From an uncultured candidate division Zixibacteria bacterium (lineage in GTDB: Bacteria > Zixibacteria > MSB-5A5 > UBA10806 > 4484-95): a stretch of DNA of 64,000 bases. The notes beneath the pieces were generated by a model, which saw only the letters and a list, made by a program, of their open reading frames with translations, was not told the DNA's origin and did no database searches. The stretch lies in the NCBI GenBank assembly GCA_963668625.2, contig CAXXKA010000001.1, positions 576,001 to 640,000 of the forward strand. Reading direction: 5' to 3'. The translations under genes were made by a program, and so were the position numbers. This document shows positions 45,762 to 49,916 of the stretch, one piece after another (the first letter of the stretch is position 1; each line of letters opens with the position of its first letter).

Positions 45762-46538
45762 ATGAATACCGGAAGTATAATATCAAATTCTATTAAAATA
45801 ATGATGTTATCGGTCATGATAGCGGCTTGCTGCTGTGGCCCGAATATATCATCGGAAAACTACTCTGAAAGCAAAAGCAAAGCTATCAGGCTGGTTGATG
45901 ATGGGAGATGCGATAAAGCCGTTAAGTTATGCCGCAAGTTGTTGGAGATAAACGAGAAGGATGCCGAAATATACCGTCTGGCAGCAGCTTGTTTCGCAAA
46001 AATAAACCAGCCCGATAGCGCGGTTTTTTACTATCAGGGAGCTATAGTATTCAATCCCTCGGATCGCCAGGCTTATGAACGTATAGCCGATATTTATTAC
46101 GATAAAACCGACTATCACACCGCTATGACCTGGTATGATAAAGCATTGCAGATTAGCTATATCAGCCCCGAAAGCTATGTCAGGTTAGCGAAAATACATC
46201 AGAACTGGAGCGAATATGCTTTTGCCGGAAGATATTACGGTTATGCCCTGGCGGCCGATCCTGACAATGTTGAAGCGCTTTATGGCCTCGGCACGATACA
46301 ACTTCAAACCGGTGACACCACGGCGGCAATTAGCTCTTTGAGCAAAGCGGCGGAATCGGGTAAACATGCCGGCGCCGCCTATAAGCTGGGGGTTATTAAT
46401 CAACAGATGAAAGACTACAGTAAGGCTATCGGCTGGCTGGAGAAATGTATCGAGTTCAGCGATGACCAATCGTTGAAAGATAAAGCCTACCAGTTCAAGA
46501 TGGAGATCGTGATGCGGATGAGGGACGGGCAGCAGTAA
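45762..46538 (+). CDS. TPR repeat lipoprotein
   Basis: Lipobox IAAC; multiple TPRs. Confidence 0.8.
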   Translation: MNTGSIISNSIKIMMLSVMIAACCCGPNISSENYSESKSKAIRLVDDGRCDKAVKLCRKLLEINEKDAEIYRLAAACFAKINQPDSAVFYYQGAIVFNPSDRQAYERIADIYYDKTDYHTAMTWYDKALQISYISPESYVRLAKIHQNWSEYAFAGRYYGYALAADPDNVEALYGLGTIQLQTGDTTAAISSLSKAAESGKHAGAAYKLGVINQQMKDYSKAIGWLEKCIEFSDDQSLKDKAYQFKMEIVMRMRDGQQ

Positions 46539-46913
46539 GCGGAAATGATCGTTGCTTAACAAAATATCTATTTTAATCCTGAAGGTCTAAGTCACCTGTC
46601 ATTGGCTTGAAAATACTGATTCAGAAGCTAAACGTATTCTATAAACCTTGTTTTGATATAGTCATGGCGATAAAATCAAATCGAAACGGAGTTTCTTGAA
46701 TGCCGGCATACCGAACGGAGCGATTGTTGAAACAGCTTTTCATGAGTCGCTGGGCGGACGAAGTCTTTTGTTTATCCTTTCCCGACGATATACTGCATGT
46801 ATGCAGCAGGAAGAAAGTAACTATGTTATCAAAAGCTTGAGCCTCAGTCATTCGGATTGTATTGTTATTTTGACAAACATTCAACAATCAACACGAACAA
46901 ACAGGAGGCTCAA

Positions 46914-47972
46914 ATGCCATGTTACAACAAAATCGAGCGTGAAGCCAACACTATTTACGTTGGTATTGACGTTCATAAGCGGAGTTGGCATGTAACAATG
47001 CGAACAACTGAGCAAGAGTTATGGAAAGGCAGTATTGCAGCTGATTGGGAAGTATTGAAAAAAGTATTGGGGCGTTATTCCGATTGTGACATTTCGGTAG
47101 TTTACGAAGCCGGTTTTAGTGGTTTCTGGTTATATGACAAACTGGTAGCCTGGGGAGCGTCATGTATAGTGACTCCGCCGAGTTTGATTCCTTCTGAATA
47201 CGGCAATCGGGTCAAAACTGATCGCCTCGACAGTGCCAAGCTTGCTTTACTACTTTCCCGTAGTATGCTCAAGGCAGTATGGGTACCTGATGTCGAAGCG
47301 CGTGGTCATCGCCAGGTATTGCGTCGCCGTCGCCAGTTGGTCAGCGACCGGGTCCGTATTCAATGCCGTATCAAGAGTGAGTTAGCCTGTTTCGGTCTAT
47401 CTCTGCCGACAATTAGCGGCAAGTGGACGGAGACATTCGAACAGCATTTATGGCAGTTGCGTTTTAGTGATCGCTGGCAGACAGAGAGTTTTCAGAGGTT
47501 ACTGACACAGTATCGGCTGGTGAGTGAATTGATTACTCAACAGACACGGTTATTGAAAGAATTGTCAAAACTGGATCGTTATCGGGAAGCGGTTGAGCGT
47601 CTACGTAGTGTTCCGGGCATCGGCTTGTTAACGGCGATGGAACTATTATTGGAGTTAGGGGACTTCAGCCGATTTAGTCGAGGAAGCCAATTGGCCGCCT
47701 ACGTGGGCTTGACTCCAAGCCAATATTCCTCCGGTGACAAGGTTCGACTAGGACGAATCACCAGGATCGGCAAACCGCAGTTACGGTCGAATCTGATCGA
47801 AGCCTCCTGGATTTTGATCAGGAAGGATCCGGCCCAGGCTCAGCGTTATCAACAGCTCAAGTGGCGGTGTGGTTCCAAACGAGCCATTGTGGCCAGTGCC
47901 CGCCGTCTACTGTTAATCGTACGGCGTCTGATGCTTGACCATCAGAGCTATCGAATCCAAACCGCAGCATAA
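46914..47972 (+). CDS. IS110 family recombinase/transposase (DEDD + Tnp domain)
   Basis: YVGIDVHK, VYEAG, KTDRLD, VPGIG, GLTPSQYSSG; AGGAGG RBS. Confidence 0.95.
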   Translation: MPCYNKIEREANTIYVGIDVHKRSWHVTMRTTEQELWKGSIAADWEVLKKVLGRYSDCDISVVYEAGFSGFWLYDKLVAWGASCIVTPPSLIPSEYGNRVKTDRLDSAKLALLLSRSMLKAVWVPDVEARGHRQVLRRRRQLVSDRVRIQCRIKSELACFGLSLPTISGKWTETFEQHLWQLRFSDRWQTESFQRLLTQYRLVSELITQQTRLLKELSKLDRYREAVERLRSVPGIGLLTAMELLLELGDFSRFSRGSQLAAYVGLTPSQYSSGDKVRLGRITRIGKPQLRSNLIEASWILIRKDPAQAQRYQQLKWRCGSKRAIVASARRLLLIVRRLMLDHQSYRIQTAA

Positions 47973-48005
47973 AAAAGAGATAATTAGTTTACAATATCTG
48001 AGTTT

Positions 48006-48146
48006 GGAGAATGGCGAAGGAATCCTTGTGGCTTAACAACAGACCGCGCAGGAAAGGGTGTTATCTCCCCTGGTAATAATCTCGGATTGATTAATTGTGG
48101 CTGTGTTTGAGGGCCAGACCACGAATAGCAGGGTGACTATTATCGG
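48006..48146 (+). ncRNA. Predicted bridge/seek RNA of the IS110 element
   Basis: Two stem-enclosed internal loops, each with guide-TGTGG and guide(AG)-GGTG; guides match the target and donor junction. Confidence 0.7.
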
Positions 48147-48389
48147 CAATGTCTAACAGTGGCAGCATGTTGTAGTTTAAACATGGGTATTCTGCGTTTT
48201 ATTAAGAAAAGGAGAAATCGATATAACAATACTAACCGAACAATATCACTTGACATGATACATAGCAGGATTCCTACCACCTCAGCGAAATCGAAACGGA
48301 GTTTCTTAATACTGGCCTTACCAGGCGGAGTATTTTAACGAGATTAACATCATGCCGGGCTGTTACACCCGGCATGATTATTAGATATG

Positions 48390-49916
48390 CTACTGAATGG
48401 TATAAGAATCGCTTGTCTCGTGGTTGGAGGCGGAATTGTAATACCAGCCGTCTTTGGTGACATCGGTAACAGTAGCCGTGAATGACATCCCGCGCGATGC
48501 GCCGGAAATCCCGAAAGTAACCGTACCGCTAGCGTTTGTATATCCGCTGAAATAGTAATTGGAACCGCCGTGGTGGTATAATGTCATATCTACATAGGCG
48601 TTACTGACCGGGGTGGAATGATCCTCAGTGTGAATATTAACGTAAATATACAAAATGTAGTACCATCCCCAGCGTTGCTGGCTGAACGATATAGAGTTGA
48701 CATGCATCGTATCGGCGCCGGCGCCACCGCCGCCGTAATCATCACCGTTGGTTGTGCCGAGCGTAGCGTTTTCGGCATCCACCAGGCCGTACCCCTGCTG
48801 GGTAGCGGGCAGGCTGATATCCTCGGCGGTGTTATGCAGCAGTGTTCTGATTTGTACATTGGTATAGCCTGAATGAGCCTCCCAGGCCAGCGCGGCCGAA
48901 CCGGCTACCATCGGGCAGGCCATGGAGGTGCCGCTTAAGGTAGCGTAGGTGTTTCCGGCATAGGTAGAGTAGATACTCGATCCGGGAGCAATTAGCTCGA
49001 TTTCATTGCCGTAATCGGAGTAGTCAGCTATATCATCGGATGAGGTCGAGGCCGAAATGGCCATCACCGAGGTTAAGGCGGCAGGGTAATCGACAGCTGA
49101 ACCGTAGCCGTTTCCGGCGGCAGCCACCAGGAGTATGCCCTCATCATAGCAATCCTCCATCGCCACATCCTCAGCATATGAATAGCCGCCCCCATAGCTC
49201 ATGGAGATAACTTTGATATTGTTGTAAGGATCGGCATCGTAATGCGTATCGATACACCAGTCGGCTGCCTCGAGAATATAGTTCAGGTAAGGATCACTAT
49301 AGCCTACGCGTAAAGCCCAGAGATCAGCCTCGGGCGCGACACCGACAACACCGATAGCGTTGTCATCCGCGCCGATAATACCGGCGCAATGCGTGCCGTG
49401 ACCACTGGCATCATCCCAGGCAGTCGTGTCGGCGGTATAGAAATTATATCCACCGGCCCAGGTCAAATCGGGGTGATCCTGATCGCCGCCCGAATCGATA
49501 ATCGCGACATCGATACCATCCCCGGTATATGCAGAATTATCATGCACGTACTCGGCATCGATTCTATCGACTCCCCAATCCAGGGTTTGGACGTTAAAGC
49601 GACGGATCATGTTCTCTTCGACGAATTTAATCCCTGGTTTTGAGGTCAGGGTGGATACGGCATCCTGGGGAATAGAGGCGAACACGATTGGGAAATGTTT
49701 GTATTGATGTTTTACTTTACCGTTAACCGCCGCGATAGAACTGGTAGCCCCCTTTTCCTCAATGCCGATTAAGACATTAACTTGCCCCGGTTCGACCGCG
49801 TGCTTCATTATGTAATCATTATTGCTTTCCGTATCGGTGGGCATATCTTTCGAACAACTAAAGACCATCATGAGGACGGCCAGCCCAGCCAGTAACAATA
49901 AAAGTTTGTTTCTCAT
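48390..49916 (-). CDS. Subtilisin-like S8 serine protease lipoprotein
   Basis: Lipobox VFSC; IIDSG, HGTHCAG, GTSMACP triad; I9-like prodomain. Confidence 0.92.
   Translation of the reverse strand: MRNKLLLLLAGLAVLMMVFSCSKDMPTDTESNNDYIMKHAVEPGQVNVLIGIEEKGATSSIAAVNGKVKHQYKHFPIVFASIPQDAVSTLTSKPGIKFVEENMIRRFNVQTLDWGVDRIDAEYVHDNSAYTGDGIDVAIIDSGGDQDHPDLTWAGGYNFYTADTTAWDDASGHGTHCAGIIGADDNAIGVVGVAPEADLWALRVGYSDPYLNYILEAADWCIDTHYDADPYNNIKVISMSYGGGYSYAEDVAMEDCYDEGILLVAAAGNGYGSAVDYPAALTSVMAISASTSSDDIADYSDYGNEIELIAPGSSIYSTYAGNTYATLSGTSMACPMVAGSAALAWEAHSGYTNVQIRTLLHNTAEDISLPATQQGYGLVDAENATLGTTNGDDYGGGGAGADTMHVNSISFSQQRWGWYYILYIYVNIHTEDHSTPVSNAYVDMTLYHHGGSNYYFSGYTNASGTVTFGISGASRGMSFTATVTDVTKDGWYYNSASNHETSDSYTIQ

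Follow-up and report, generated by a model that had tools for sequence, protein, structure and literature searches.

Introduction

Within the IS110 family of insertion sequences, the IS1111 group is described as having a longer non-coding region (NCR) downstream of tnp, subterminal repeats of 7-17 bp with extensions, the motif GL-P----S(t)G, and an RNA whose top-strand match precedes, in the 5' to 3' direction, its bottom-strand match; promoters formed at the junction and transcription of tnp together with the RNA are likewise described for the IS110/IS1111 family (Siddiquee et al., 2024, PMC11187229). In this article, I will discuss how an insertion sequence of 1451 bp, found at 46818-48268 (+ strand) of a 64,000-nucleotide stretch of DNA (hereafter the window) from an uncultured candidate division Zixibacteria bacterium (GenBank assembly GCA_963668625.2, contig CAXXKA010000001.1, positions 576,001 to 640,000), compares with these systems. 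It is very likely an IS1111-group element of the IS110 family, composed of a recombinase gene followed on the same strand by a bridge (seek) RNA of about 141 nt.

The nearest likenesses are ISEc11, ISPa11 and ISKpn4, members of the IS1111 group with a seekRNA, and the present element shares with them, as they are described (PMC11187229), the position of the NCR, the subterminal repeats with short extensions, the motif, a transposase near 330-350 aa (352 here), the guide order, a junction promoter, and orientation-specific insertion without duplication of the target. It differs from these three, in a comparison made by description only, in its target, the loop of a GGAA-AGGA-TTCC hairpin, and in its hosts, which are uncultured environmental bacteria; its left terminal extension amounts to 3 nt and the core, where 7 bp is given for ISEc11 (PMC11187229).

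The other main point of reference is IS621 (Durrant et al., 2024, PMC11208160; Hiraizumi et al., 2024, PMC11208158), which, in the accounts given there, resembles the present element in its two-loop RNA, each loop reading both strands around a shared core dinucleotide, in its DEDD and serine recombinase, in its REP-type (repetitive extragenic palindromic) targets, and in a right-donor guide that is discontinuous and weaker than the other three, the pairing in IS621 being interrupted by flipped-out bases. IS621 differs in that its RNA lies upstream in the left end, its guide order is reversed, its core is CT rather than AG and its subterminal repeats are only 2-3 bp; furthermore, its right-donor guide is described as pairing the core, whereas here a C faces the core G in 16 of 22 relatives and an A does so in this element, and sequence similarity between the two recombinases is confined to the C-terminal domain. 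ISPpu9 and ISPpu10 (PMC12288879; bioRxiv 10.64898/2026.03.19.712850) are described as present in multiple copies within one REP family, as is the case here, but in other hosts and at other target sequences.

Anatomy of the element

The element consists of a 96-nt left end before the ATG (46818-46913), an open frame of 352 codons and a 296-nt right end after the stop (47973-48268), the core AG being counted with the right end. Its parts and the two target halves, read along the window, are:

46809-46817 (+): left target half, GGAAGAAAG, ending in a copy of the AG core (46816-17)
46818-46820 (+): left terminal extension TAA, the presumed reading site of the short right-donor guide
46821-46831 (+): left subterminal inverted repeat, CTATGTTATCA, which includes the -10-like TATGTT (46822-27)
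46914-47972 (+): recombinase gene, 352 aa plus stop, preceded by an AGGAGG Shine-Dalgarno sequence
48006-48068 (+): module 1, the predicted target-binding loop, in which a 10 x 10 internal loop separates an outer stem from an inner hairpin
48006-15/48060-68 (+): outer stem of module 1
48018-48026 (+): right-target guide, AGGAAUCCU, complementary to the top strand of the core and right flank
48049-48056 (+): left-target guide, CAGGAAAG, identical to the left flank and core, and so placed to pair with the bottom strand
48070-48146 (+): module 2, the predicted donor-binding loop, with outer stem 48070-78/48138-46
48091-48096 (+): right-donor guide, in which UUA (48091-93) would pair with TAA (46818-20)
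48125-48131 (+): left-donor guide, AUAGCAG, identical to the right end and core
48250-48265 (+): -35-like TTGACA (48250-55) and right subterminal inverted repeat, TGATACATAG (48256-65)
48267-48275 (+): core AG and right target half GATTCCT

Placement in the IS1111 group rests on the position of the NCR, the subterminal repeats, the motif, the length of the protein and the order of the target matches, and in each the sequence matches the published description. The right end is 296 nt long and the left end 96 nt; the subterminal repeats share 10 matching bases and carry extensions, TAA and C; the motif reads G265 L266 T P268 S Q Y S S273 G274; and the guide against the top strand (48018-26) lies 5' of the guide against the bottom strand (48049-56). 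As in the IS110 family at large, insertion is specific for site and orientation, and in the five copies of the element considered below it duplicates nothing beyond a shared core dinucleotide.

Judged by its domains and aligned residues, the protein is a DEDD/serine recombinase of the IS110 family. A Pfam search found the N-terminal domain (PF01548, E 3.8e-16, residues 16-157) and the C-terminal Transposase_20 domain (PF02371, E 2.5e-27, residues 228-313), and the NCBIfam model NF033542, "IS110 family RNA-guided transposase", scored 238.1 bits with a cutoff of 140. D19, E65, D103 and D106 do not vary when the protein is aligned with six relatives, and S272 and the motif G265-L266-x-P268-x4-S/T273-G274 are conserved, with T at position 273 in one relative (L013); the form found here, GLTPSQYSSG, aligns with GLTPRRYESG of ISCro4, the catalytic role of the D-E-D-D residues and of the serine in the SG motif being taken from papers by residue correspondence. 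Against solved structures the C-terminal domain alone aligns (ISCro4 9t56 and IS621 8wt6, E about 4e-9). The frame is open in all five copies, and the claim of an apparently intact recombinase, made in a prediction from the sequence alone that preceded this analysis (the original prediction), is upheld. The nearest relatives have recombinases 52-77% identical to this one and come from metagenome-assembled genomes (MAGs) labeled as uncultured bacterium, Ignavibacteriales/Ignavibacteria and Zixiibacteriota; in one of them, a Zixiibacteriota MAG (L012, 1501-2495), the recombinase is frameshifted and the RNA region and ends are intact.

At the two ends, CTATGTTATCA (46821-31) and TGATACATAG (48256-65) are reverse complements with 10 bases matching and one extra base, and outside them the terminal extensions, TAA on the left and C on the right, adjoin the core. 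In all five copies the left flank and the element's right end have the dinucleotide AG in common, and when the ends are joined at this core TTGACA (48250-55) and TATGTT (46822-27) come to stand 17 nt apart with the subterminal repeats around the junction, just as had been proposed. The arrangement recurs in relatives: TTG lies at an identical distance from the right end in 33 of 35 and is one base off in the remaining two, and TATGTT, TATATT or TATAAT occupies bases 5-10 of the left end in all 22 relatives whose left end was mapped.

A two-loop RNA after the gene

The RNA of about 141 nt (48006-48146, + strand) lies in the long non-coding right end just after the recombinase gene, and both of its loops are built on one architecture. 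An alignment of seven post-stop regions from relatives gave a consensus structure in which 15 of 30 pairs show compensatory change, and the covariance model built from it (R1) was searched against 88 sources, made up of the window, the 7 close relatives and 80 loci from metagenomes whose proteins are 34-63% identical. R1 matched 64 of the 88, every time on the + strand and no more than about 100 nt past the gene; over the whole genome it matched the five copies of the element only, and it matched 0 of 69 distant IS110 loci (about 30% identity) of similar total length. In the resulting 64-row alignment 91.9% of cells pair, as against 30-45% with slid partners, a figure that is inflated because the alignment was fitted to the model, and changes on both sides occur in 28 of the 30 pairs. 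Helices 1-4 of module 1 are 92-100% paired, with compensatory change in 13 of 15 pairs, and helices 5-8 of module 2 are 83-93% paired, with compensatory change in all 15. The same alignment contains four nearly invariant G:U pairs, which identify the + strand as the RNA strand.

The original prediction had drawn two parallel stem-loops here, to be checked by folding the region, and that check divides: the stems are unsupported by folding of the single sequence, but comparative covariation supports them. A search of Rfam 15 with 46500-48600 gave no match better than E 5, although Rfam 15 may hold no bridge RNA family.

Guides to the target

Four guides had been decoded by hand in the original prediction, and all of its strings and coordinates are present, including AGGAATCCT (48018-26), GAAAG (48052-56), TTGATTAAT (48087-95) and ATAGCAG (48125-31). 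On the target side AGGAATCCT is the exact reverse complement of 48267-75, and GAAAG does equal the left flank at 46813-17; the left-target guide was therefore correctly positioned but measured too short, being 8 nt long (CAGGAAAG, 48049-56) rather than 5. In 20000 mononucleotide shuffles of the 266-nt NCR, AGGAATCCT arose with a frequency of 0.0008, CAGGAAAG of 0.006, ATAGCAG of 0.022 and GAAAG of 0.41, so that GAAAG alone is worthless as evidence. The left-target guide matches the left flank at 8 of 8 positions in three copies (L002, L003 and L004).

Covariation of guides with flanks across homologues was a check that the original prediction had asked for, and it came out in its favor: relatives inserted at other targets carry correspondingly changed guides. 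Right ends were found by the left-donor 7-mer and then checked by promoter context and right-target match, and left ends were mapped in 22 loci via the subterminal repeat. Over 35 relatives the right-target guide matches the right flank at a mean of 6.34 of 7 positions, with 30 of the 35 scoring at least 6, while mismatched pairs of loci average 2.69 of 7 over 1184 pairs, of which 11 score at least 6; this score is computed on flank-only 7-mers, an earlier 10-mer score (7.91 versus 4.08) having misjudged five loci with 9-nt loops, which scored 2-4. For the left-target guide the mean over 22 relatives is 6.18 of 8, with a control of 3.93. The targets themselves are visibly unrelated between subclades, and include, with a slash between the halves, GGGAGAG/GGGT, GGGCAAG/ACCTGACA, CTTTTGAG/... 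and ATAAAAG/ATAAAAGA, among others.

Guides to the donor

On the 3' strand of loop 2, ATAGCAG (48125-31) equals the right end of the element at 48262-68, as had been noticed. Across the 64 loci the 7-mer of this strand recurs downstream behind a TTG box in 37, of which 35 have enough flank to score, and it comes in eight variants, each found at its own right end (ATAGCAG, ATAGGAG, ATGGCAG, ATAGCGG, ATAGAAG, ATAAAAG, GTAGAAG and ATAAGAG); in 26 of the 35 loci the bases past the right end agree with the right-target guide in at least 8 of 10 positions.

The fourth guide, on the 5' strand of loop 2, had been expected as a 9-mer and found to match the donor at only 5 of 9 positions; the count is correct and the expectation is not, this guide being short, about 3 nt with a core position that is partly mismatched. 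The 3 nt before the last two of the strand are complementary to bases 1-3 of the element, perfectly in 17 of 22 loci and at two of three positions in the other five (mean 2.77 of 3, control 1.41), over nine different left-end triplets. The bases opposite the core in these 22 loci are CA in 8, CC in 4, CT in 4, AT in 3, AA in 2 and TA in 1, which places C opposite the core G in 16 loci, A in 5 and T in 1. In the present element U95 or U96 stands opposite the core A, and since the strand has 11 nt where its counterpart in loop 1 has 10, one of its bases is probably bulged. That the fourth guide might read the subterminal repeat was considered and dropped, 8 nt of the loop-2 5' strand matching the left end at 4.50 of 8 positions, barely above the control of 3.16.

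This weak contact invites the alternative that module 1 alone is the guide, equivalent to a short seekRNA, with module 2 serving as a scaffold, a processing signal or a protein-binding element, and the ends read by the protein via the subterminal repeats. An 82-nt short seekRNA with the target matches is described as sufficient for movement of ISEc11, the role of the long RNA being unsettled there (PMC11187229), and in the present case the loop-2 5' strand pairs only 3 nt, its longer match hardly rises above the control and the subterminal repeat lies outside its reach. Nevertheless, the loop-2 3' strand changes with the right end in eight variants, the 3-nt guide tracks nine left-end triplets, and loops 1 and 2 are alike in architecture, and I consider it improbable that module 1 is the only guide. 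A more tentative proposal, in which my doubt somewhat outweighs my belief, is that donor reading in this subclade is lopsided, with a 7-nt guide for the right end, a 3-nt guide for the left end, complementarity to the core G not conserved, one extra and probably bulged nucleotide, and the subterminal repeat left to the protein. If true, this would be a hybrid reading of the donor by RNA and protein, in which a deliberately weak contact at the left donor might make strand exchange run in another order or direction (excision versus insertion) than in IS621. The short, core-mismatched guide to the left end is only a mildly new point, and it may already appear in the supplements to PMC11187229 or PMC11208160.

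Weighing the evidence

The mechanism supported by these results is the published one, with the original decoding right apart from the refinements given above. A number of observations, to which the model-fitted alignment belongs, nevertheless count against a working RNA-guided element. At the DNA level, the left-target guide matches the window's own left flank at only 6 of 8 positions and that of another copy (L005) at 5 of 8, and A94 of the right-donor guide faces the core G as a mismatch. The ends of relatives were located partly by the guide or the repeat itself, and guides and flanks are shared by descent, so the locus counts overstate the number of independent events. At the RNA level, folding of the single sequence was no better than of shuffles (z +0.28 and +0.64), a null that is expected for RNAs with large internal loops and hence is not counted against the structure, and a scan for sigma-70-like promoters and terminators found none on the + strand around the RNA. 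Finally, no circle junctions or empty-site contigs were seen in the element-bearing contigs of three runs from one sample, and among the runs listed as holding the element, whose three holders are contigs from one sample and one study, none is recorded as RNA.

Copies in the genome and signs of activity

Five full copies and one 63-bp right-end fragment were found in the genome, which comprises 4.3 Mb in 10 contigs, and the five are identical except for a single base:

48062 (+): sole difference between copies, T in the window copy but C in the rest, which turns a G:C pair of the module 1 outer stem into G:U

With this change the RNA scores 120.9 bits under the covariance model in the window copy and 122.9 in the others. 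Every copy is inserted in one orientation, with ...GAAAG on its left and GATT... on its right. The right flank is GATTCCT in four and GATTTTT in L002; the left flank is CAGGAAAG in L002, L003 and L004, GAAGAAAG in the window and TCCGAAAG in L005. Other copies with different ends or flanks had been named as what would refute the decoding, and the four further copies have identical ends and flanks that match both target guides. The contig bearing the element is at 3-12 times the depth of its flanks in the three runs. Judging from the copies, the element appears to have been recently active.

It could instead be a silent relic, its copies identical through recent segment duplication or assembly effects and its RNA defunct, and the finding of no RNA run among those listed, the flanks of two of the five copies that form no hairpin, the truncated right end elsewhere in the genome and the frameshifted gene of L012 would all suit such a history. 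I regard this as very improbable in the face of flanks that differ from copy to copy over five contigs or places and are cut at the identical dinucleotide every time, of frames that are all open and of a sole substitution that keeps its stem pair; also, the recombinase was found in only one of 40 related genomes, as a partial match with 35% identity, which fits recent arrival and spread better than old decay.

Two peculiarities of the copies deserve mention in their own right. The 63-bp fragment (L006 1501-1563; G000:C6:578611-578673) is a solo right end, preceded at a distance of 6 nt by an intact target hairpin and succeeded by a right half-site, the whole lying inside a local duplication with a spacing of 341 bp, and it is probably the relic of a deleted copy. 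In addition, the left and right flanks of the window copy (46795-46817 versus 48269-48285) and of L005 belong to hairpins of different types and show no pairing between them, perhaps because DNA between two copies was deleted or because the element entered a degenerate site. A deletion between direct copies is no more than a guess; an inversion between the window copy and L005 was also considered, and the reciprocal flank partners sought by eye were not found.

The target is a repeated hairpin

The element sits in the AGGA tetraloop of a hairpin that resembles a unit of REP or bacterial interspersed mosaic element (BIME) type and is repeated through the genome. The motif GGAAAGGATTCC occurs 39 times where 0.49 occurrences are expected, and 41 empty sites with GAAAGGATTCC form hairpins with the conserved top GGAA-AGGA-TTCC, whose stems vary between copies yet remain complementary; stems of at least 9 pairs were found in 31 of the 41 empty sites and, among 5000 random positions, at 9. 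Conservation also extends over about 60 nt left of the hairpin, with an inverted half copy among them, and for this reason the repeats resemble paired REP (BIME-like) units. The part of this family that lies in the window is:

46750-46817 and 48269-48285: the portions of the repeat on either side of the element

The empty site had been described as itself a small hairpin, which holds strongly for the consensus site of the genome and only weakly for the window's own, since the left flank there is without one G and unpaired with the right flank. With a target motif this abundant, a stray copy inside the element is conceivable and GAAAG does appear in 41% of shuffles, but the idea that the NCR matches the flanks by chance, or through a piece of the target hairpin that it captured, rather than by way of guides has a next to negligible probability, given the chance frequency of 0.0008 for the 9-mer, the representation of both strands of the site at equivalent places of a conserved structure, and the 35 relatives with unrelated targets that carry matching sequence at those two positions.

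Relatives within the genus and the order are enriched for the target motif as well (23, 12 and 8 copies, for example, with 0-1 for a reversed control). Because the recombinase is nearly absent from related genomes while the repeat is enriched there, the element looks like a recent arrival that met a ready-made set of sites, the repeat being old in the lineage. The closest relatives (L007-L009, 75-77% protein identity) are inserted after a CTCTCCC-N4-GGGAGAG hairpin adjoining GGGT.GGGGTGAGGGC, which is another repeat-like site, and their guides are changed to match.

Further features of the locus

Two more features lie within the element:

46837-46913 (+): hairpin in the 5' untranslated region, arm TTGAGCCTC (46837-45) pairing with GAGGCTCAA (46905-13)
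48218-48240 (+): right arm of an inner inverted repeat, whose partner is 46851-46873 (23 nt, 83% complementary)

The hairpin has arms of 9 nt with 100% complementarity, folds at -25.5 kcal/mol (z -3.99) and covers the AGGAGG Shine-Dalgarno sequence of the recombinase, and the same arms are visible by eye in relatives; it looks like a device for damping translation of the recombinase. The arms of the inner inverted repeat lie about 30 nt inside each end, at equal offsets in L008 and L009, and the repeat is weak or absent in distant relatives. Outside the element, another small repeat family flanks it at 46676-46725 and 48288-48335, with 10 copies in the genome, and contains CGAAACGGAGTTT and then a TTACCAAA...TTTGGTAA hairpin.

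A proposed cycle and its meaning

The anatomy, the copy number, the insertion sites and the covariation of RNA structure and of guides with DNA are observations made on the sequences themselves, and transcription, binding of the RNA by the protein, circle formation and the catalytic steps are filled in below by analogy with the family. In such a cycle the element would be excised as a circle, its joined ends reading ...CATAGC-AG-TAACTATG..., and the junction would set the -35 box of the right end 17 nt from the -10 box of the left end, making a promoter that could transcribe the recombinase gene and the RNA as a single transcript. Loop 1 of this RNA would read the target and loop 2 the donor junction, the 3' strand of loop 2 pairing opposite ATAGC and AG of the right end and about 3 nt of its 5' strand pairing with TAA of the left end, beside a partly mismatched core position. 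The recombinase would then exchange strands at the shared AG, because of which the element would land in one orientation and duplicate no target bases, and its natural target would be the AGGA tetraloop of the repeated REP/BIME-like hairpin. The original prediction also called the recombinase programmable, and family membership together with the covariation of guides suggests that it may be.

The finding adds a decoded, apparently active bridge recombinase of IS1111 type with an AG core from uncultured environmental bacteria, and supplies 64 related RNAs with guides that can be read against their flanks, marking the positions of the donor loop that vary with the ends in this subclade. This would be of use for reprogramming IS1111-type systems, which are less studied than IS621, and leaves the current view of the mechanism unchanged. 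For the genome itself, it identifies five insertion points in a REP-like family, and the two copies with mismatched flanks may record rearrangements.

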